From contig CAZNUY010000001.1 in NCBI GenBank assembly GCA_964576745.1, positions 1-50,798 on the forward strand: a stretch of DNA of 50,798 nt. The letters run 5' to 3'. How positions within the stretch are numbered: position 1 is the stretch's first letter; each line of letters opens with the position of its first letter. The stretch is from an uncultured Candidatus Saccharibacteria bacterium (GTDB lineage Bacteria > Patescibacteriota > Minisyncoccia > Phycocordibacterales > PALSA-1337). Under the pieces are notes generated by a model. It saw nothing but the letters and a program-made list of their open reading frames with translations. It searched no databases and was not told the origin of the DNA. Below are positions 7,423-34,142 of this stretch, in pieces. The translations under genes and the position numbers were made by a program.

Positions 7423-7638
7423 ATGAAAGCTTTACATGCAATAGCATTTATATTGGTAGTTGTAGGTGGTTTAAATTGGGGACTAGTAGGTGTTGCTGAT
7501 TACAATGTTGTATCATTGGTAGGTCAAACACTAGAGAAAGTTGTTTATATTCTAGTTGGTCTTTCAGCAATATATCTTGTACTTACACATAAGAGTACTT
7601 GCAAGAATTGTTCATCAGGAGGATCACAATCAATGTAA
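7423..7638 (+). CDS. DUF378-family small membrane protein
   Basis: 71 aa with the LVVVGGLNWGLVG signature of DUF378. Confidence 0.7.
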   Translation: MKALHAIAFILVVVGGLNWGLVGVADYNVVSLVGQTLEKVVYILVGLSAIYLVLTHKSTCKNCSSGGSQSM

Positions 7639-7654
7639 TATTTTAGTTAATCTA

Positions 7655-7690
7655 AAACAAAAAATCACCTTAATAGGTGGTTTTTTGTTT
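7655..7690 (+). terminator. intrinsic terminator after the DUF378 gene
   Basis: Hairpin CACCT-TAAT-AGGTG extended by A/T pairs and followed by a T-run. Confidence 0.6.
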
Positions 7691-7741
7691 TAATCGGCTT
7701 GAATTTTACTGATAGTTAGTGTATAAATAGATTATATAAAT

Positions 7742-9525: not shown

Positions 9526-9601
9526 GGTGGCTATGGTGTAGCGGTTAGCACCAGAGTTTGTGGAACTCTTAGTTCGGGTTCGACTCCCGATAGCCACCCC
9601 A
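9526..9601 (+). tRNA. tRNA-His (anticodon GTG) with encoded G-1 and CCA
   Basis: G-1 plus acceptor GTGGCTA/TAGCCAC; anticodon loop TTGTGGA; T-loop TTCGACT. The 3' end abuts the left end of the island. Confidence 0.85.
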
Positions 9602-11176
9602 TTCGAGAATCAGTTGTTGAAAAGCGACATTTCGCGCCTCAACAGAACTGTATTCTCTCAGTCCTAACCTCTCAAATTCAGCCCTAAATTCAGGGTATGC
9701 TTCTTTGATTGGCTGGAACCATTCGTTGGCTGTGATGAAGACTTTGCCGTTTTTGATGTAGAAGTTTTGACCGAGTGCAGAGAATATCTCGCGCTTTCGC
9801 TGGAGATTGCCCATAACAAACTCCTTTCGGGCAAAGCATGCAAAGCTAAATACCTGCTCAGTGAGATCGAGCCACTTGGAAGCACGTCCCTCGGTTTCCC
9901 GGAGTTTCGCTTGTAATCGGGTGATCTTATCTTTTAGGATGTCGCGCTCTTTGACGAAGGTCTCATCGTCGATAAGATCTCGGTAACGCATCTTGGTGAG
10001 GTTATCAAGCTCAGTCTGTGACTCTACGACAGTTTTGTGTTGCATTTCATAAATCTTGGTACGGTCCTCAATTTCTTTGTCGTTATTGCGATTCAACGCC
10101 TCAATAGCCCAAGTTTGGAATTCGGGAAGTATGGTGTACTCCTCAAGTAAGAGCTCGATCTGCTGTTCGAGGTCGGCAAGAGTGATAGGGTTTCTCTTGG
10201 TGCATGTTGAGTTCTTCTTATTACCACCACAGTGATAGTAAGAATAATTTTTCATCTGGCCTGTCTTCTTTACCATTTTTAATCTTTCTGTAGCGGTATA
10301 CATTGAACCGCAAAGTCCACAACGAATAAGCCCAGTGAATGCAAATTCATGAGTCTGAGGGTGTGGTTTCCCAGCTCTATCAAAGATGGCCTGGACCCGA
10401 TCAAATTCCTCAAGGGTGATCATTGGTTTGTGATTACCTTTATAGATTTTCTTACCCCAGTGGAAATTGCCAGTGTAGAAAATATTATTGAACATTTTAT
10501 AAATCACACTCGGTGCCATCTCAACTCCACCGCTGTGTTTACTCTTAAGGGAACGGTAGCCCCACTCTTTGCTCGCAATCTCGGCAATTTTCTTTGGAGT
10601 GTAATTACCGGTGAGCATAAGGTCCCACATTTTACGGACCAAATGAAAACGTTCAGGATCAGGAAGGATAGTATGCTCAAGTCGCTCGTTAATATACCCA
10701 GCTGGTGCCTTCGAAGGGAACCAACCACGTTCAGCTTTTCCATGCATGCCTCGCTTGGTGTTTTTGCGTAGCTCAATGATGAACTGATTCGCCATGCCGC
10801 TTTCAACACTGAACAAAAGAACATTGTCATCAGGCAGATATTCACGTTCCATCGTTTGAATGGACTCGATAATGCCTTTCTGAAGCATCCAGCTGAGCTT
10901 TCCACTATCGATAGGATTGCGTGCGAGGCGATTGATCTGCCAGCAAAGAATTCCTTTTGCCTCGCCTTTTTCAATACGCCTGAGCATATCGTTAAAGATA
11001 GGTCGACCCGGCTGTTTGGCCGACTTTGCCTCAGTCAGAATTTCTTTGACTGAAATGCCAAGAGCGTTGGCTCGTTCTTTGAGCCTGTTCACTTGGTCCT
11101 CGATTGATTGTTCTTGTCGGTCCTCTGATTCAGAAGACTTACGAGCATACATGAAATATTGAACGTTTGTTGCCAT
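9569..11176 (-). CDS. large serine recombinase (integrase)
   Basis: N-terminal resolvase motif YARKSSESEDRQEQSIEDQ and INRLARN, a recombinase domain, and a Cys-rich zinc ribbon (CGLCGS...YYHCGG...C). The last 11 codons read antisense through the tRNA-His 3' half. Confidence 0.9.
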   Translation of the reverse strand: MATNVQYFMYARKSSESEDRQEQSIEDQVNRLKERANALGISVKEILTEAKSAKQPGRPIFNDMLRRIEKGEAKGILCWQINRLARNPIDSGKLSWMLQKGIIESIQTMEREYLPDDNVLLFSVESGMANQFIIELRKNTKRGMHGKAERGWFPSKAPAGYINERLEHTILPDPERFHLVRKMWDLMLTGNYTPKKIAEIASKEWGYRSLKSKHSGGVEMAPSVIYKMFNNIFYTGNFHWGKKIYKGNHKPMITLEEFDRVQAIFDRAGKPHPQTHEFAFTGLIRCGLCGSMYTATERLKMVKKTGQMKNYSYYHCGGNKKNSTCTKRNPITLADLEQQIELLLEEYTILPEFQTWAIEALNRNNDKEIEDRTKIYEMQHKTVVESQTELDNLTKMRYRDLIDDETFVKERDILKDKITRLQAKLRETEGRASKWLDLTEQVFSFACFARKEFVMGNLQRKREIFSALGQNFYIKNGKVFITANEWFQPIKEAYPEFRAEFERLGLREYSSVEARNVAFQQLILEWGGYRESNPN

Positions 11177-26595: not shown

Positions 26596-28098
26596 ATGTC
26601 AAAAAATGTATTATCTCTCAACTATATAAATGCCAAGAAATTCTTTTTAGAACAAGAGAGTTATACGAATATTGATCTGCCCCCTTATTTTACATTCGGT
26701 AAAACTATTTCAGCGATAAATACTAAATTAAATAATTCAGAGATCTCTTTCAATGAATTAAAATCAGCAAAAACCAACGAGACGATTAACCATGTCCTGT
26801 ATGGCAATAAGGACGGTAAATACGCTTGGAGAAAGTACGAGTTAATACATCCTCTTGTCTATGTCTCTTTAGTAAACATTATCACTCAAAAAGATAATTG
26901 GAAGGTTGTACAAGATAGATTTAAGGAATTTCAGAAAGATAAGAGAATCGAATGCGAAAGTATTCCTGTGCTTAAAGATCACAAATCCAAGCAAAAAGCG
27001 GCACAGATCTCACAATGGGTTGAGAGTGTTGAAAAGAAATCCATCACATTATCATTAGATTATAAGTTTTTGTATCAAACTGATATAACTGATTGCTATG
27101 GGTCTATTTATACCCACTCAATACCATGGGCGATTCATACAAAGACTATCTCGAAAACAAAACGCAATTATGGTGATTTGTTTGGAAACAAAATCGATCA
27201 CCATATTCAGGCAATGAATTGTGGCCAGACAAACGGTATTCCTCAAGGAAGTATACTGATGGACTTTATAGCTGAGATGATTCTTGGTTATGCTGACACA
27301 AAGATCTCAGAAAAATTAAATATTCAATTGAATGGTAAAAAATTTCACATACTCAGATATAGAGATGATTATAGGATTTTTGTGAATGATATTACTGATG
27401 GCGATACTATTTTGAAATGTATAAGTGAAGTACTAATAGATTTTGGTTTTCGTCTAAATACAAGTAAAACCTGTCATTGCGACGATATAATTTCTGGTTC
27501 GATCAAGCCGGATAAACTTGATGCTATAAAATACGGAAGTGTGCCAAAGAAATTTTCGAAAAAAGAGTTAATGAATCAATTATTGATCGTTCAGCAAATC
27601 AGCAAAGATTATCCAAATGCCGGTACATTGAAGGTTAGGATGTCAAAAATCATCGATGCTGTTAAGGTTAAAGATTTCTATTATCAGCAAGAATTTATAG
27701 CCGGTTTACTGACTGATATTGCATACAATAACCCGAATACGTTTCCCGTTGTGGCATCGCTGTTATCAAGCTGTATTTCCAAGTTAACTTTCAAATCAAA
27801 AAAAGAAATCCTATCAAGAATCGAAGACAAAATGTGTAATCTATCAAATATCGGATTGATAGAAATATGGATGCAAAGAATTGCTATTAGATTCAAATTC
27901 AAGCTTTCTTTAAAAGAAAAGCTGTGCAAACTTGTGTATGGTTCGAGTGATCAGATATTTGTTAATACATGGATTACTGATGCCGCAATCAAAAAACTTA
28001 TAGAAGATAGATCATTTATAAATAAGGCGAAGATTGGAAAGATGAAAATAGTTATCGACAAGCGAGAAGTTCAATTATTCAATAATTATTACAATTAA
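26596..28098 (+). CDS. reverse transcriptase, non-DGR, non-retron style (UG/Abi-like) with a helical C-terminal region
   Basis: RT motifs DITDCYGSIYTHSIPWAI, GIPQGSILMDFIAEMIL, ILRYRDDYRIFV (YxDD variant) and FRLNTSKT, followed by about 190 aa of C-terminal helical sequence without a recognised domain. Confidence 0.8.
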   Translation: MSKNVLSLNYINAKKFFLEQESYTNIDLPPYFTFGKTISAINTKLNNSEISFNELKSAKTNETINHVLYGNKDGKYAWRKYELIHPLVYVSLVNIITQKDNWKVVQDRFKEFQKDKRIECESIPVLKDHKSKQKAAQISQWVESVEKKSITLSLDYKFLYQTDITDCYGSIYTHSIPWAIHTKTISKTKRNYGDLFGNKIDHHIQAMNCGQTNGIPQGSILMDFIAEMILGYADTKISEKLNIQLNGKKFHILRYRDDYRIFVNDITDGDTILKCISEVLIDFGFRLNTSKTCHCDDIISGSIKPDKLDAIKYGSVPKKFSKKELMNQLLIVQQISKDYPNAGTLKVRMSKIIDAVKVKDFYYQQEFIAGLLTDIAYNNPNTFPVVASLLSSCISKLTFKSKKEILSRIEDKMCNLSNIGLIEIWMQRIAIRFKFKLSLKEKLCKLVYGSSDQIFVNTWITDAAIKKLIEDRSFINKAKIGKMKIVIDKREVQLFNNYYN

Positions 28099-28104
28099 TT
28101 TTTT

Positions 28105-28854
28105 ATGTCAGAATATTACAAAGCAAGCAGGGGTCCAGCCTGGAACTATGGCGGTCAAAATTGGAAATTGAGTAGATCAAAGATTGATTTATTCTTAGAA
28201 TGTCCAAGATGTTTTTATATCGACAATAAACTTGGAGTAAAGAGGGTCCCGCCATTTCCTTTTTCAATCAATAGTGCAGTCGACCATCTATTAAAGCAGG
28301 AATTTGATTCTCTGAGGATTAAGAATGAGCAACATCCTCTTCAGAAGGAATATGGTATCGATGCTCGACCTGTATCTCATGAGGAATTGGATGAGTGGCG
28401 TAGGAATTTTGGTGGTATTAGATATATACACGAACCAACTGGTCTAATAGTGACTGGTGCGATTGACGATCTTTGGATTAATAGTAAAGGTGAATATATT
28501 GTTGTTGATTACAAGGCAACTGCTAAAGATGAAGCTGTAAAAGCATTGGACAAAGAATGGCAGGATGGCTACAAAAGACAAATGGAAGTATATCAGTGGT
28601 TATTAAGAATGAATGGGTTAAAAGTATCGAACACAGGTTATTTCGTTTATTGCACAGGAAAGATGGACAGAAAAGCTTTTGATAAACGCATAGATTTTGA
28701 TGTGAATCTTATCGAATACGTGGGTAATGATTCGTGGGTGGAAGATACTCTATTTAAAATTAAAAAATGTCTTGACGGTGATAAAATCCCAGCTTCCAGC
28801 CATGATTGTGATTGGTGTAATTATTGGAATGCTAGAAGGGGGATTGAGCCTTAA
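28105..28854 (+). CDS. Cas4/RecB-like PD-(D/E)XK nuclease with a four-Cys cluster
   Basis: N-terminal CPRCFY, core GAIDDLW...YIVVDYKAT, QMEVYQWLL (QxxxY) and C-terminal CDWCNYW. Confidence 0.7.
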   Translation: MSEYYKASRGPAWNYGGQNWKLSRSKIDLFLECPRCFYIDNKLGVKRVPPFPFSINSAVDHLLKQEFDSLRIKNEQHPLQKEYGIDARPVSHEELDEWRRNFGGIRYIHEPTGLIVTGAIDDLWINSKGEYIVVDYKATAKDEAVKALDKEWQDGYKRQMEVYQWLLRMNGLKVSNTGYFVYCTGKMDRKAFDKRIDFDVNLIEYVGNDSWVEDTLFKIKKCLDGDKIPASSHDCDWCNYWNARRGIEP

Positions 28855-28874: not shown

Positions 28875-28903
28875 TTGACAAAAGTATAGTATAGGTGTAT
28901 AAT
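28875..28903 (+). promoter_or_regulatory. consensus sigma70-type promoter upstream of the DGR target gene
   Basis: TTGACA (28875-28880), a 17-nt spacer, then TATAAT (28898-28903). Confidence 0.65.
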
Positions 28904-28936
28904 TGTATTGTAGTTCTTTGATACGAATTGTGAGTT

Positions 28937-28984
28937 GGTCATAGCGAAAAGCGGCTCAATCTTGGGCCCCTCCTCGCTATGACC
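28937..28984 (+). other. 11-bp perfect-stem hairpin in the 5' leader of the DGR target
   Basis: GGTCATAGCGA (28937-28947) pairs with TCGCTATGACC (28974-28984) across a 26-nt loop. It marks the start of the GC-rich block. Confidence 0.6.
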
Positions 28985-29043
28985 ACACCGGCCCATAGTG
29001 CCTCCTCGGCGTAGAGGGAAACCAAAAAGAAAGGAAACTGACC

Positions 29044-29754
29044 ATGGAAACCATGCTCAGCAAAGCGCTCCGCGAATTCACGACCGGACCGCTCAATCAG
29101 CTCATCGTGAACCTCGGTGGCCAGGACGGCGACCAGTGGGAACAACAGCTCAAGCAGTTCCTCCGCAAGGAGCCCTGCTGGACCAATGGCAACGTCACGC
29201 AAGTGGCGCAGCCGAAACCCACACCCTCGATCCTCGAGCTCGTCTCGACGGTCGTGGTCCCCGCAACCACCGTCAACCTCGTCGCCAAAGAGAAGTTCGT
29301 TCGTGACACTGGCCGCAAAGCCAAGGTCAAGATCAGCTATCTCGGCGACAACTTCACCGAATGGTTCCTCTCGGGCTCCGGCAAAACCGAAAACCCGATC
29401 AGCGAACAGACGCTCCGCTACCACAAGTTGCGGCAGTCCTCGGTGGACGGTCCCATCATCGCTGAACTCGGCGGTGTGGAGAAGTCGGAAACGACGCTCT
29501 CTGAGATGTTTGCCCTCATGGAAAAGCAGGGCAAGGGCGAAGACGGTGTTCTCCTGAACAACGGCTACGCTAACATCTTCTACATCAAGGACCAAAATGG
29601 TGTGCTTCGCGCGGTCCTCGTGTTCTGGCGCGACGACGGCTGGTGCGTCTTTGCGTACTCCGTCGGGTACCCGCGCAGGTGGGATGATGGCTACCAGGTG
29701 TTCTCTCGCAATTCTGTTCTCGAATCCTCGGAACCTTCGGCTCCGGCTGCCTAG
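29044..29754 (+). CDS. DGR target (variable) protein with the VR at the C-terminus
   Basis: 236-aa ORF with GC-rich codon usage. The C-terminal 38 codons are the VR copy of the TR. No signal peptide is evident. Confidence 0.85.
   Translation: METMLSKALREFTTGPLNQLIVNLGGQDGDQWEQQLKQFLRKEPCWTNGNVTQVAQPKPTPSILELVSTVVVPATTVNLVAKEKFVRDTGRKAKVKISYLGDNFTEWFLSGSGKTENPISEQTLRYHKLRQSSVDGPIIAELGGVEKSETTLSEMFALMEKQGKGEDGVLLNNGYANIFYIKDQNGVLRAVLVFWRDDGWCVFAYSVGYPRRWDDGYQVFSRNSVLESSEPSAPAA
29598..29711 (+). repeat. DGR variable repeat (VR)
   Basis: 114-nt alignment to 30076-30189 with 18 mismatches, all at positions where the TR has A. Confidence 0.92.
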
Positions 29755-29780
29755 CCTGATCCTTTGTCCCTTGGACACTT

Positions 29781-29822
29781 TGACCCTCAGTCTGCTTCGG
29801 TGGATTGGGGGTCAATTTTTTA
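29781..29822 (+). terminator. terminator-like hairpin plus T-run downstream of the target gene
   Basis: TGACCC (29781-29786) pairs with GGGTCA (29809-29814), followed by AATTTTTT. Confidence 0.45.
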
Positions 29823-30075
29823 TATTTAAATTTCTCTTGCTATACTTATTTCTGAAATCATGTGTTACGTGACGGTTACGGCTTTCATGTCATGGTCTTA
29901 GGATTTTTTTCTCGAGAGTCACACTGGGTATGCCTTGTGTGAGAGTGGGGAAAGTATCTTCAAAAAAATAACAAGAATTGGTATATGAGATTAGTGGACT
30001 TTGAGGTCCCGGATAAAATTCAGCTGGTCATGGTTTGGCTGGCGGTGATATAGATGATCTTGTATACGATAACGC

Positions 30076-30189
30076 TGGTGTGCTTCGCGCGGTCAACGTG
30101 AACTGGAACGACGACGGCTGGAACGTCAATGCGAACTCCGTCGAGAACCCGAACAGGTGGAATGATGGCAACCAGGTGTTCTCTCGAAA
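30076..30189 (+). repeat. DGR template repeat (TR)
   Basis: Contains 10 AAY codons in the VR reading frame, and adenines at all 18 VR-divergent positions. Confidence 0.92.
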
Positions 30190-30209
30190 CTGTTGGTTTT
30201 CTCCTCGGC

Positions 30210-30587
30210 TTAAGGTCGGGGAGTTTTTGCTTGCAAACCTTTCTTCCAGCCACCAAGTTGTCGCCCGATTTCCTCAAGTCTTCCGATTAGGTCCGAGTAT
30301 GTATCAGTTGGAATAATTTTACTTTCCCATGCGAGTTGCACAAAGAACTTCACAATATCAAGTTTTGTGATGGCTTTGTTTAATATTGGTATTTTGTGTT
30401 CAGGTGGGAGATAAGAAAGACAGAATGTGTATTCAAGTACATCAAGAAAAGCCTGTTCAATTCTGTTTCCAATTCCATACCGCTCGATTTTCGGAAAATC
30501 ACGATGGATAGAGAGCCAAAAACGATATGTCTCTTTCGATTTGAGAATTACCTGTGGTAATTCTCGGGGGGGGGGGTAATATGATCC
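30210..30587 (-). CDS. avd: Avd-like accessory variability determinant; open frame lacks a canonical start as assembled
   Basis: My own minus-strand translation, absent from the ORF track: ...KETYRFWLSIHRDFPKIERYGIGNRIEQAFLDVLE...LDIVKFFVQLAWESKIIP...LIGRLEEIGRQLGGWKKGL. It resembles the FPK..ERYG and EvGR.LG.W blocks of bAvd-family proteins. The upstream ATG (complement of 30602-30604) is out of frame across a C11 tract. Confidence 0.7.
   Translation of the reverse strand, partial: GSYYPPPRELPQVILKSKETYRFWLSIHRDFPKIERYGIGNRIEQAFLDVLEYTFCLSYLPPEHKIPILNKAITKLDIVKFFVQLAWESKIIPTDTYSDLIGRLEEIGRQLGGWKKGLQAKTPRP
30566..30576. repeat. G11/C11 homopolymer between the avd 5' region and the RT start
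   Basis: Eleven consecutive G counted on the plus strand, ending 4 nt before the ATG at 30581. Confidence 0.95.
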
Positions 30588-31585
30588 TTATTAGTATGAG
30601 TCATGAGTATAAGAATATCATATCCATCAAAAATCTATGCGATGCGTGGACCGAATTTATATGTGGCAAGAAATCTAAAAAGGACGTTGCTGAATTTTCT
30701 TTGAATCTCTCTCAAAACATTTTCAAATTGCACGAGGAGCTGCGAACAAAAACATATAGACATGGTGCATACGAAGCTTTTTCGATAAGTGATCCGAAGC
30801 CGAGAAGTATTCACAAGGCTACGGTCCGAGATAGATTATTACATCATGCTATTTACAGGATTTTGTATCCCTATTTTGATAAAAAGTTTATTTATGATTC
30901 TTATTCCTGTCGAAAGTTCAAAGGAACACATCGAGCGTTAAATCGGTTTAATGATTTCGTGATGAAAGTATCACAAAGCAATAGTAGGGCATGCTGGGTT
31001 CTGAAATGCGATGTAAGAAAGTTTTTTGCGTCTATTGATCATGAAAAACTCATTGAAATATTCGAGCGACATGTTAATGATATGGAAACGATCTGGCTTG
31101 TAGAGCGCATTGTTGAGAGTTTTCAAAGTACTGGTCCAGGAAAGGGTTTGCCTTTAGGTAATCTGACCTCGCAACTCTTGGTAAATGTTTACATGAATGA
31201 GTTCGACCAGTTTGTGAAGCACAAGCTCAAAGCTAAGTATTATATTCGGTATGCCGATGACTTCGTTATTATTCATCATGAGAAAGGTGTGTTGGTGGAT
31301 GTACTGCCAAAGGTTCAGAGCTTTCTCAGTGAACAGCTAAAGCTGTCTCTTCATCCAGATAAAGTGTTTATTAAGACAGCTTCATCAGGTGTAGATTTTC
31401 TGGGCTGGGTCCATTTTCCGCACCATCGAGTGATACGGACAACAACAAAAAATCGTATGTTCAAGAAAATCAAAGATTCTCAAGAAAAGCCGGAAGTTGT
31501 TCAATCGTATCTCGGGCTTTTGAGTCATGGAAATGGGTGGAATTTACAAAAGAGGATTAAGCCCAAGATAGGCAGAGTTCATTAG
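30581..31585 (+). CDS. DGR-type reverse transcriptase
   Basis: LPLGNLTSQLLVNVYM (the SQ signature of DGR RTs), IRYADDFVI (YxDD), DPKPRSIHKATVRDRLLHHAIY and VDFLGW. The track ORF begins at the GTG at 30554; ATG 30581 or 30596 is more likely. Confidence 0.9.
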   Translation: MILISMSHEYKNIISIKNLCDAWTEFICGKKSKKDVAEFSLNLSQNIFKLHEELRTKTYRHGAYEAFSISDPKPRSIHKATVRDRLLHHAIYRILYPYFDKKFIYDSYSCRKFKGTHRALNRFNDFVMKVSQSNSRACWVLKCDVRKFFASIDHEKLIEIFERHVNDMETIWLVERIVESFQSTGPGKGLPLGNLTSQLLVNVYMNEFDQFVKHKLKAKYYIRYADDFVIIHHEKGVLVDVLPKVQSFLSEQLKLSLHPDKVFIKTASSGVDFLGWVHFPHHRVIRTTTKNRMFKKIKDSQEKPEVVQSYLGLLSHGNGWNLQKRIKPKIGRVH

Positions 31586-31680: not shown

Positions 31681-31896
31681 ATGATTTCAAAACAAGCGTT
31701 AGAAGAATTCAAAGAGATTTGGCGACAGGAAAACCCTGGCCAAGATATCGACGACGCAACCGCAATGGATCAGGCGGTAGCTTTGCTTACTCTCATGGAC
31801 ACAGTCTACAGGCCGGTGAAGAAAGAGTGGCTGGAAAAGTATAAGAGTGAAGTGGCCAAAGAAAATAGTGAAGGCAAGGGTGGGGTAACTCAATAA
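31681..31896 (+). CDS. small conserved element protein (paralog of 12546-12806)
   Basis: 71 aa from the ATG at 31681; alignable to the other copy over about 45 residues. Confidence 0.5.
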   Translation: MISKQALEEFKEIWRQENPGQDIDDATAMDQAVALLTLMDTVYRPVKKEWLEKYKSEVAKENSEGKGGVTQ

Positions 31897-31944
31897 TTTT
31901 ACCCGTAATAACGGGAAATTAACGGGAAGGCACTTTTGCATGAA

Positions 31945-31967
31945 ATAGTGAGTGAGAGTGTGGGGTA
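31945..31967. repeat. island-specific motif copy C (ATAGTGAG-N5-GTGTGGGGTA)
   Basis: Exact match to both half-motifs. Confidence 0.7.
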
Positions 31968-32139
31968 AAGACTGATAAAACAGTTAAATAACAGTCTTTG
32001 ACTTATAGATCAAGAATTACAAAACAGAGTAGGTGATTGCCGTTAAAAAACGGTGAAAAAACGGGTGCGAGTCACCATTAGAAAAAGGTGAAAAAATGGG
32101 CAGACCAACTTTCAGCAGAAATTTCGGTGGTTCGATAGA

Positions 32140-32162
32140 ATACAGAGTAGAAGTGTAGGGTA
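32140..32162. repeat. island-specific motif copy D (degenerate: ATACAGAG-N5-GTGTAGGGTA)
   Basis: Same spacing as the other copies, with 3 substitutions. Confidence 0.5.
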
Positions 32163-32276
32163 AAACTGCAATTGTAATTTAAGTACAACAAAACTATCCG
32201 TTGTTAATACAACGCAAAAGCAACGTGCATCCACCTGCAAATGCAGGTAAAATGCAGGAGTAATTATTATTTAGAT

Positions 32277-32299
32277 ATAGTGAGCGCAGGTGTGGGGTA
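32277..32299. repeat. island-specific motif copy B (ATAGTGAG-N5-GTGTGGGGTA)
   Basis: Exact match to both half-motifs. Confidence 0.7.
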
Positions 32300-32443
32300 A
32301 GAGTCTTTGAAGCTTGGAATGTAGATCGTAGCGTCATCGATTTTCTCGAATATATTTCTAACCTGCGCCACTACGCGACCCCAGAAATATTTGTAGCATT
32401 TTGTCAGGACGATAAATTACAGTTTTATTGTATAATTTACTAT

Positions 32444-32674
32444 ATGAAAACAAAATACAATCAAGGTTATATCGCACTTCTAGTCATGCTGATTACTGGA
32501 TTAATAATAGTTATATTAATGTTACAGCAATACAAAAAATCAGGATTAATCAGACAAGATAATTCAAAATTAATAGATTCAGATGTCTTAAATAATACCG
32601 TAACACCGATAGATAGTGCTAAAAATATAAAAGATGTTTTAGAGAAAAGGGATCAGGGTTTACTAAATAATTAA
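32444..32674 (+). CDS. small membrane protein, hypothetical
   Basis: 76 aa with one TM helix (YIALLVMLITGLIIVILML). Confidence 0.4.
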   Translation: MKTKYNQGYIALLVMLITGLIIVILMLQQYKKSGLIRQDNSKLIDSDVLNNTVTPIDSAKNIKDVLEKRDQGLLNN

Positions 32675-33237
32675 GGACAATCATTCGGATCATAAGTGAT
32701 TCTCACATCACCATCTTGTTTCTCTATAGTATCTGGATCTGTGCCACCATCTTTAAGAGTAAAGTCATTTTGTTCCATTGTTGCAAAAGATAAATAATAT
32801 CCCTGATATATGATTACACATGCAACAAAATTATTATTTACGCTATTATAGACCCTGATTCTTTGGGGATTTGAGCTTGTGCCTTTGAAATATGAGTATC
32901 CATTTATTAATATATCTCTACCACCAGATGTTATTATGTTTGTACTGTATGATGGGTATGGTATTGACGATAATACAGGTCTTAGTAAATTCCCAAGTGT
33001 TGGCCAGCCGTGCGGTGTGTCACTGTAGTAAAAATTTGCTGACCCAATAGGTGGCCAATCACCATTATTTTGATAGTATAATTCAAGAGCTGTTCTCATT
33101 GTCGTTATATCTCTTGATGCTTTGGCATAGCCAGCTTTCTCTTTGGATTTTTGAGTTGAAGATATTACGACACTAGATAATAATCCAATTATTGATATAA
33201 CTACCAATAGTTCTAGTAATGTAAAACCTCTTTTCAT
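32671..33237 (-). CDS. type IV pilin / pseudopilin-like protein
   Basis: Prepilin N-terminal cleavage/methylation motif MKRGFTLLELLVVISIIGLL. Confidence 0.85.
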   Translation of the reverse strand: MKRGFTLLELLVVISIIGLLSSVVISSTQKSKEKAGYAKASRDITTMRTALELYYQNNGDWPPIGSANFYYSDTPHGWPTLGNLLRPVLSSIPYPSYSTNIITSGGRDILINGYSYFKGTSSNPQRIRVYNSVNNNFVACVIIYQGYYLSFATMEQNDFTLKDGGTDPDTIEKQDGDVRITYDPNDCP

Positions 33238-33269
33238 TCTAGATAATTATATCATGATATAATTTCATA

Positions 33270-34142
33270 GTGAAAAAACTAGTTATTGCTACAATATTTA
33301 TTCTATTTATTACGGCTATTTATTTTGATTATAAACCAGATAAAAATATCTCATTACCAATTTTACAACTTTATCCCGAGACTATTTATCAAGGAGATCC
33401 AATTTTTATAATAATAAATGCAAGTTCAACTCCTAAATCAGTTTTGTTTGATAAAAAAGAAATAAAAATCTCAAAATACAATGATTCATATATTGGTTTG
33501 GTCGGTATAGATTTACATGAAGTTAAGAAAGATCATCAAATTAATCTTGAATTAATGAATGGAATAAAAATTGATAAATCAATCGTATTGGTAATGAGAA
33601 TGAAGGAAGAGAAGCCACTTGGAATACCAGATAGTCTCGGAGGTAATACCAAAAAAGCAGGGGAGAGTTTGCTGAGTAATATTACAAAAGAGAATGCAAG
33701 TATAAATAATATTAAATTAGACCCAAAATCCTTTTGGCAAAACAGTAAATTCAACCCACCTTTGAAAACATTGTTCATTACAGATAATTATGGATACAGT
33801 AGAAATACCGTAGGTTATTCTATAGCTCATAAAGGTACAGACTTCCGTGCTCCTGAGGGAACAGAAGTTATGGTGATAAATAAAGGAATAGTAAGAATTT
33901 CTAGGTTGTATACTTTATCAGGTAATACAATTGTAATTGATCATGGATCAGGACTTGTATCTATTTATATGCATCTTTCAAAATTAAATGTAAAAGAGGG
34001 TGATATTGTTGAGTCGGGTCAAGTAATAGGATTAAGTGGCAAAACAGGATATGTATTGGGACCACATCTACATTTAGCAATAAAGATAAATGGAATATCA
34101 ATAGACCCAGCAAAATTTCTGACATATTTTGATATGTTATAA
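33270..34142 (+). CDS. M23-family (LytM-type) metallopeptidase
   Basis: HKGTDFRAPEGTEV and GPHLHLAI zinc-ligand motifs; N-terminal signal anchor; GTG start. Confidence 0.85.
   Translation: MKKLVIATIFILFITAIYFDYKPDKNISLPILQLYPETIYQGDPIFIIINASSTPKSVLFDKKEIKISKYNDSYIGLVGIDLHEVKKDHQINLELMNGIKIDKSIVLVMRMKEEKPLGIPDSLGGNTKKAGESLLSNITKENASINNIKLDPKSFWQNSKFNPPLKTLFITDNYGYSRNTVGYSIAHKGTDFRAPEGTEVMVINKGIVRISRLYTLSGNTIVIDHGSGLVSIYMHLSKLNVKEGDIVESGQVIGLSGKTGYVLGPHLHLAIKINGISIDPAKFLTYFDML

Follow-up and report, generated by a model that had tools for sequence, protein, structure and literature searches.

The 50,798-nt stretch of DNA analysed here (contig CAZNUY010000001.1 from an uncultured Candidatus Saccharibacteria bacterium, hereafter the window) very probably carries a complete diversity-generating retroelement (DGR) of the Patescibacteria lineage. 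The element occupies positions 28875-31585 at the end of a defence-rich integrated island and follows the layout known as B3, in which a target gene with its variable repeat (VR) is followed by a template repeat (TR), a reverse-strand avd gene and a reverse transcriptase (RT) gene. An earlier reading of this DNA, made from the letters alone and referred to below as the original prediction, had already taken the locus for a complete DGR, and our analysis supports it. More tentatively, we propose that slippage in a poly-G/C tract gates or tunes Avd, RT or both throughout the lineage, so that only a subpopulation diversifies, and that the TR RNA has a build different from that of Bordetella, with its own promoter, a 5′ leader related to the RT-9 RNA motif and a terminator right after TR. 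If this is true, hypermutation is itself gated by a second, simpler mutator, the slipping tract.

The element is an ordinary DGR, of a kind in which Patescibacteria are known to abound, and near-identical cassettes are public. What makes it worth following is the hypermutable G tract beside an avd that lacks a start codon, the structured and apparently separately transcribed TR RNA, and a GC-rich target that has no significant structural match.

The variable and template repeats

VR (29598-29711) and TR (30076-30189), both on the plus strand, align without gaps over 114 nt. They differ at 18 positions, and at every one TR has an adenine. This pattern had been described in the original prediction, and on realignment none of the 18 mismatches (0/18) fell on a non-adenine position of TR. 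A repeat search of the window recovers the same pair, and an 18-mer taken from the repeat occurs at the VR and TR sites only (chance expectation 0). In total, 18 of the 29 TR adenines are substituted in VR. Read in the frame of the target, TR contains ten AAY codons, all ten of which are altered in VR, together with a GAG that has become GGG and a silent change of CGA to CGC. The VR residues at the altered codons are L, F, R, C, F, Y, G, Y, R, D and Y. The codon design claimed at the outset, ten AAY codons plus one GAG with these same residues in VR, is thus borne out, and the protein diversity then put at the order of 10^11-10^12 agrees with the roughly 6 × 10^11 combinations that ten AAY codons allow.

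VR spans codons 186-223 of the 236 in the target, that is, 38 codons that precede a short C-terminal tail, and its end lies 40 nt ahead of the stop codon. Among target homologues, these codons include hypervariable columns. On the 3′ side, VR and TR have the block CCAGGTGTTCTCTCG in common and then diverge. The blocks CTGTT and TCCTCGG are present 3′ of both repeats, as the original prediction had noted when it proposed ends that resemble the initiation of mutagenic homology (IMH) and its TR counterpart (IMH*). That observation stands, but the interpretation of the TR-side TCCTCGG as IMH* is uncertain because this block belongs to a conserved terminator stem.

Related cassettes record the same process. 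The comparison was restricted to cassettes with a near-identical TR and comprised 22 distinct VR copies and 16 TR copies, with the TR of the window as the reference. Of the 29 adenine positions, 47% differ from it in the VR copies, compared with 6.3% of the remaining 85 positions, and the TR copies are changed at 0.9% of the adenine and 4.0% of the non-adenine positions. The adenines are therefore the most conserved positions among the TR copies. At the protein level, the target alignment shows invariant scaffold residues interspersed with hypervariable columns. These data demonstrate that adenine-directed diversification of VR operates in the lineage, a statement that holds at the lineage level and is not evidence on the present activity of this copy.

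One related locus (loci are designated by L numbers) has an unusual arrangement. In L089 (1-1798; protein P0023), VR and TR are merged into one hybrid copy, the leader is absent, and the target open reading frame (ORF) continues directly into the sequence downstream of TR. The merged copy reflects either a deletion by recombination between VR and TR or an assembly collapse.

Reverse transcriptase and Avd

The RT gene (30581-31585, plus strand) encodes 334 residues that match the RVT_1 family (E 1e-26). As the original prediction stated, the ORF carries both LGNLTSQ, which contains the motif-4 signature [ILV]GxxxSQ of DGR RTs, and YADD. When compared with proteins of solved structure in the PDB, the closest relative is 8ub7, a 328-residue reverse transcriptase (E 1e-39), and RTs of the group II intron and retron types appear in the same ranking at ~1e-20. 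Presumably, 8ub7 is the Bordetella DGR RT and the entries 8ub7-8ube are Bordetella bRT-Avd-RNA complexes. These sequence features identify the enzyme as an RT of the DGR type. In phage records, no relative exceeds 39% identity; Bordetella phage and other RT-carrying phages are among them.

The accessory variability determinant gene, avd, is located between TR and the RT gene on the minus strand (30210-30560), with its stop at 30210 and a frame that remains open upstream to 30581. Its product exceeds the cutoff of the Pfam family bAvd (45.9 bits, cutoff 40) and falls below that of the NCBIfam model DivGenRetAVD (61.3 bits, cutoff 80), which agrees with the Avd-like ORF first reported here. A search of Avd alone against PDB sequences gave no match. 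The antisense direction of avd is not a peculiarity: architecture B3, TR-(avd)-RT, was published for 90% of the DGRs in a CPR (candidate phyla radiation) set (Wu et al. 2018, PMC5758913). Since the B3 layout is typical of CPR DGRs, antisense avd is a hallmark of the lineage rather than an oddity.

The start of avd is less conventional. No ATG, GTG or TTG is present in the avd frame from the upstream stops to codon 69. An ATG farther upstream (MTHTNKDHITPPP...) is in frame with avd only when the intervening G tract has 9 or 12 residues, and at the present length of 11 it is out of frame. The gene is nevertheless intact in copies with tract lengths of 8, 10 and 11, across which the ratio of non-synonymous to synonymous substitution rates (dN/dS) is 0.03-0.17. 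Thus, avd is under purifying selection, and on the evidence of its sequence it is a functional gene. The one Leu codon with the potential to act as a start varies by clade between TTG and TTA, which suggests that it is an internal codon and that translation of avd is initiated within the tract or ahead of it.

Immediately next to the G tract, at 30541-30565, is a perfect 9-bp inverted repeat (GAGAATTAC / GTAATTCTC, with a 5-nt loop) that extends over the first conserved codons of avd. In other clades, different hairpins seem to occupy this place.

A poly-G tract at the avd/RT junction

The avd and RT genes diverge from a junction of ~20 nt that contains a run of 11 G (30566-30576; C11 on the avd strand), between the N-terminal end of avd (30560) and the ATG of the RT gene (30581). 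Of 72 RT-linked loci, ~66 have a G tract; once a metagenome scan is added, the number of loci with the tract is 92, with 80 distinct flanks. The G residues are on the RT strand in every case. A conserved Tyr codon of avd is ~39 nt away, and the RT ATG mostly 4-13 nt. Such runs are otherwise rare: the 651 kb of loci contain 70 G runs of at least 8 and no C run of 7 or longer.

The length of the tract varies from 6 to 14 over the lineage. Behind an identical 25-nt flank (n = 34), lengths of 6 (2 cases), 7 (1), 8 (5), 9 (6), 10 (9), 11 (9) and 12 (2) are observed. Near-identical contigs of independent origin, which are 99.7-100% identical over an 800-nt flank, differ in tract length in all five groups available (8 vs 11; 9, 10 and 8; 8 vs 9; 11 vs 12 among them). 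Therefore, the tract changes far faster than point substitutions accumulate. What is found here, a homopolymer of at least 7 at a promoter or 5′ coding position with length polymorphism among near-identical sequences, is the sequence signature of a phase-variable contingency locus.

Homopolymer tracts in promoters and 5′ coding regions act as switches in the contingency loci of Neisseria (poly-G or poly-C at porA, opc and lgt), Bordetella (poly-C at fim) and Campylobacter (poly-G). The present tract resembles them in being a G/C run within the range of 8-12 at such a position and in its length polymorphism between otherwise identical sequences. It differs in that the genes it would control form a mutagenesis machine (Avd and RT) instead of a surface antigen, that the host is an uncultivated Patescibacterium, and that expression switching is here a proposal made from sequence. 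Placed at the start of both essential genes, the tract may be an on/off switch of the mutator. With 11 G, the single ATG upstream of avd lies in another frame, and the cassette in the window may therefore be in a low or OFF state. Our search of the DGR literature, which did not extend to Paul et al. 2017, revealed no link between DGRs and homopolymer switching. Retained across a deep lineage, the tract is a concrete, testable candidate for a switch of targeted hypermutation.

Two other roles for the tract were considered and set aside. A -10-like TAnnnT directly follows it in 42% of the unique flanks (4.6% expected), but the motif is enriched rather than universal and the -35 candidates are weak, so that a promoter around the tract was rejected. 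The tract is also unlikely to be part of the DGR RNA, as a conserved terminator stops the TR transcript ~340 nt upstream. A search of viral contigs for the junction sequence of the cassette found none.

The template RNA

TR appears to have a transcript of its own, ~375 nt long, which would run from a promoter-like site to a terminator. The promoter-like site (29819-29846, plus strand; TTTATA, 16 nt, TATACT, with a TG) is located after the target terminator, and its TAnAnT block is conserved over ~60 loci. Transcription would start near 29853. From there to 30075 extends a structured leader of ~220 nt, with helices at 29869-29888 and 29906-29954 and a third formed by 29981-29992 with 30056-30067, which encloses two more at 29996-30009 and 30023-30043. 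TR itself follows and ends ~10 nt before an intrinsic terminator, a hairpin with a T run (30199-30228; stem 30201-30223). A hairpin followed by TTTT is visible 3′ of TR in nearly all of 69 loci, and its stems covary; the automated terminator test recognised it in 36 of the 69 and missed cases with an earlier T run.

Support for the fold comes from covariation. RNAalifold, applied to 60 loci, predicts 54 base pairs for the leader and the terminator hairpin together, which make up the whole TR RNA fold; compensatory changes are seen in 47 of these pairs. Cells of the alignment are paired in 93.5% of cases, vs 69% after shuffling and 39-54% when the partners are slid along the sequence. The covariation score is 0.755, vs 0.28 for shuffled and 0.13-0.21 for slid alignments, and none of 500 shuffles reaches the observed values.

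The first half of the leader resembles a known RNA motif. RT-9 (RF03080) aligns over the full length of its 92-position model at 29865-29976, where the two agree in a GGUUACGGCU-loop hairpin, in the blocks CAUG and GAGU and in a stretch rich in A. The score of 27.7 bits is below the gathering score of 46.1, however, and RT-9 covers only the first half of the leader. The same sub-threshold match is found in L009. At gathering thresholds, the Rfam matches in the window were all tRNAs, and the leaders of 17 relatives gave no match. Because the match, though sub-threshold, is full-length and falls on covarying helices, the leader is probably a distant relative of RT-9 and not a member. The RT motifs were described as RNAs near RT genes, with the speculation that some act in DGRs (Weinberg et al. 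2017, PMC5737381). The covarying leader provides a defined RNA for reconstituting a non-Bordetella DGR.

Proposed mechanism and alternative explanations

In the mechanism that we propose, TR would be transcribed as its own RNA, and a complex of RT and Avd would copy this RNA into cDNA, misincorporating opposite adenine. The cDNA would then replace VR and rewrite the ten AAY codons, which would lie on the β-hairpin and loop surface of a compact α/β ligand-binding domain. Meanwhile, the G tract would shift in length by slipped-strand mispairing and thereby set the amount of Avd, RT or both.

Several observations weigh against this scheme or parts of it. IMH and IMH* are at most putative here, and the target fold has no significant match to any known DGR target fold. 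The evidence for diversification is drawn from assembled sequences of related cassettes and speaks for the lineage. This copy has no canonical avd start. The tract lengths are spread evenly over the three reading frames (10, 10 and 14 of the 34), which fits a non-coding role equally well, and TAnnnT follows the tract in just 34 of the 80 unique flanks.

Two of the alternatives can be given little weight. A different class for the RT (group II intron, retron or defence RT), with the repeat pair as an ordinary duplication, seems to us scarcely credible. The best NCBIfam match of the RT is group_II_RT_mat, at a sub-threshold 152.7 bits (cutoff 300) in a collection that has no DGR RT model. The mismatches between VR and TR are confined to adenines, however, avd adjoins, 8ub7 leads the solved relatives by 19 orders of magnitude, the Rfam search returned neither intron RNA domains nor a retron family, and the AbiP2-type defence RT is a distinct gene at 26596-28098. 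It is also very improbable, if less absolutely so, that sequencing or assembly errors in a homopolymer account for the differing tract lengths. Such runs are prone to error, and metagenome assemblies are the source of all the data; yet the tract is found at one position in all 92 loci, which come from many independent projects, its length differs by up to 3 nt between contigs identical over 800 nt, and other G or C runs of at least 8 are nearly absent from the same 651 kb of assemblies.

The remaining alternatives concern what the tract does. The cassette could be complete in its parts while this copy is silent or decaying, with G11 leaving no in-frame start for avd and thus no Avd and no retrohoming. 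The missing start before codon 69 and the need of the upstream ATG for 9 or 12 G point this way, avd was left uncalled by gene callers in L003, and degenerate relatives exist (L001 and L002, which lack RT, and L089 with its merged repeats). We nevertheless consider this unlikely: avd is intact and constrained over tract lengths 8, 10 and 11, the change at ten of ten AAY codons means that diversification has happened, and an OFF state caused by a hypermutable tract is reversible and hence a switch state rather than decay. Somewhat easier to entertain, though still doubtful, is a role of the tract that is independent of its length, with the length changes as tolerated noise. Possible roles of this kind are a Shine-Dalgarno-like RT leader, a promoter or initially transcribed element with reiterative transcription, and a polyproline N terminus of Avd reached via slippage. 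The even spread of lengths over the frames, the position 4-13 nt ahead of the RT ATG in most loci, the excess of TAnnnT after the tract and the variation of the potential start Leu between TTG and TTA by clade are all in keeping with such roles. However, 8-14 G far exceed what a ribosome-binding site needs, the retention of an intrinsically unstable run in lineages whose RTs have no more than 58% identity implies that the homopolymer itself is selected for, and known tracts at such positions act as switches. Gating by tract length is kept as our tentative proposal.

Target gene and variable protein

The target gene (29044-29754, plus strand) encodes a variable protein of 236 residues. As first predicted, it is preceded by a promoter (28875-28903, plus strand; TTGACA, 17 nt, TATAAT) that matches the sigma-70 consensus at 12 of 12 positions, and this promoter is conserved in L003/L004 and L098. 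The 5′ untranslated region contains a long GC-rich hairpin (28936-28985, plus strand), an inverted repeat with 24-nt arms whose stem changes on both sides in L002, L107 and L009. After VR, the terminator scan found a GC-rich 16-bp hairpin with a T run (29780-29815, plus strand), which L001 and L003 also have. It looks like the terminator of the target gene and is possibly the DGR hairpin too. The GAAAGCGGCU stretch of the 5′ hairpin resembles the CGGCU-containing loops of both TR-leader hairpins.

More than 800 homologues of the target were found, ~237 residues long, all unnamed and without a Pfam domain. The best 120 are 69-100% identical, and distant branches have a C-terminal module in common. 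The original prediction had recognised no motif and no obvious signal peptide in the protein. Likewise, searches of Pfam, NCBIfam, PADLOC and the PDB gave no match, a profile of the target against PDB sequences gave chance hits only, and direct inspection of the sequence revealed neither a signal peptide nor a membrane segment.

AlphaFold (AF2) yields a confident model from an alignment of 124 sequences (mean predicted local distance difference test score (pLDDT) = 86.6, with values >95 for residues 61-225). A first alignment of 40 close homologues gave an unusable model (pLDDT = 44.8), which the addition of distant family members remedied. The model consists of three N-terminal helices, a disordered linker and a compact α/β domain, in which VR forms a β-hairpin (188-206), a loop and the last strand. 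The predicted order of elements (strand, helix, helix, four strands) is compatible with a C-type lectin fold. Foldseek comparison of the model with the PDB and BFVD returned nothing at E ≤ 0.001; the top match is a human C-type lectin, which is not significant (E 0.6; template modelling scores 0.24/0.34). The structural check suggested originally, against C-type-lectin-fold DGR proteins, thus finds a compatible order of elements and no significant structural match. With no significant match to solved or predicted viral structures either, this family of more than 800 proteins offers an accessible case for asking what episymbionts diversify, and why.

The target gene is also unusual in composition. 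It has 59% GC (0.78 at third codon positions, GC3) in a window of 37% GC, and lies ~20 points above its genome. Over 64 loci, the mean GC3 is 0.62 for the target vs 0.42 for RT, with an excess of more than 0.15 in 46 of them. Clade target genes (L003-L106) have 52-63% GC and GC3 values of 0.6-0.84, and their avd and RT genes and flanks have 30-50% GC. Long-term adenine mutagenesis of the target's own mRNA was rejected as the origin of its high GC content, as T is depleted at third codon positions at least as much as A (A3 0.14 and T3 0.075 in the window; means over the clade 0.18 and 0.19, respectively). A short N-terminal helical motif, ..Q.E...N..GG..G....L.GE.. (residues 15-40 of the target in the window; L036, L042, L050 and L082), recurs in different target families of the clade and may be a common docking or sorting module.

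Lineage and comparison with known DGRs

When one genome per species was scanned, the RT proved to have at least 555 relatives. The best 80 are all from metagenome-assembled genomes (MAGs) of Patescibacteria, at 58%-97% identity, and the closest is a public Paceibacteria MAG whose RT is up to 97% identical; the CPR-like host proposed at first fits these relationships. In loci that contain both genes, avd is in all cases directly upstream of RT and on the opposite strand. An adenine-biased repeat pair is present in 69 loci with the same spacing, VR ~450-500 nt before TR and TR ~400 nt before RT.

The element differs in nothing fundamental from other CPR DGRs. It has the same TR, reverse-strand avd and RT in a Patescibacteria host, the target is upstream on the RT strand, and the targets are small and without a recognisable domain or membrane anchor. 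It is also restricted to Patescibacteria, like DGR clade 2, which is limited to CPR and has targets without recognisable domains (Roux et al. 2021, PMC8144416). A poly-G tract, a missing avd start, a separate TR transcript with a leader and GC-rich targets are without mention in the CPR DGR literature that we searched, which did not extend to Paul et al. 2017. That work is reportedly the first survey of CPR DGRs.

Comparison with the DGR of Bordetella phage BPP-1 (mtd, avd, TR, brt) reveals both kinship and differences. The two have in common the Avd family, the adenine-specific transfer from TR to VR, the position of VR at the C-terminal end of the target and a hairpin 3′ of VR; the RT family can be added only if 8ub7 is, as we presume, the Bordetella enzyme. 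In contrast to BPP-1, avd is here on the other strand and after TR, the target is unrelated to Mtd, and a G tract is found at the avd/RT junction. The RNAs differ as well. In Bordetella, the essential RNA beyond the template is found on the 3′ side of TR, which in BPP-1 continues into a spacer and brt. Here, in contrast, the TR RNA appears to have a ~220-nt 5′ leader and to end ~40 nt past TR, and the bulk of the conserved structure is 5′ of TR.

Some relatives are incomplete. L001 (6001-8100) and L002 (4720-6800) carry a related cassette in which the target and TR are preserved (A at 22 of 23 mismatches) and avd is reduced to its last 46 codons. RT is absent, and other sequence is in its place. 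Downstream of a related DGR in L056, a group I intron match exceeds the Rfam gathering score (7493-7698; 56.2 bits).

Genomic island

The DGR lies at one end of a putative integrated island rich in defence genes (9527-32400), as the mobile-island claim of the original prediction held. At the other end, a large serine recombinase gene (9569-11176) adjoins tRNA-His and overlaps its 3′ end. The cargo that follows comprises a copper P-type ATPase with HMA and DsbD genes, a Fic protein (PDC-S04/SoFic), a type I restriction-modification system (HsdM, HsdS and HsdR), a HARE-HTH protein, an AbiP2-type RT and a Cas4-like nuclease, with the DGR last. The GC content is raised from ~9.5 to 32.4 kb. A direct repeat of tRNA-His marking the island ends was searched for and not found, so the boundaries are judged from composition and gene content. 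The target in L002 is directly flanked by the same recombinase, 451-residue protein, DUF5659 protein and regulator, and an M23 peptidase follows the DGR in both the window and L003.

The AbiP2-type defence RT (26596-28098), just upstream of the DGR and unrelated to its RT, is full-length (PADLOC E 7e-179). It is followed by the Cas4-like PD-(D/E)XK nuclease, which has a C-terminal Cys cluster, and the two lie within 26596-28854. Just outside the island (32671-34142) are a type IV pilin-like gene, with MKRGFTLLELLVV at the N terminus of its product, and the M23 peptidase. Downstream of the DGR RT (31862-32300), a 27-nt motif (ATAGTGAG...GTGTGGGGTAA) is present four times at spacings of 80, 195 and 137 nt, and a similar motif follows RT in L003; the four copies could be recombinase sites or end sequences of the island.

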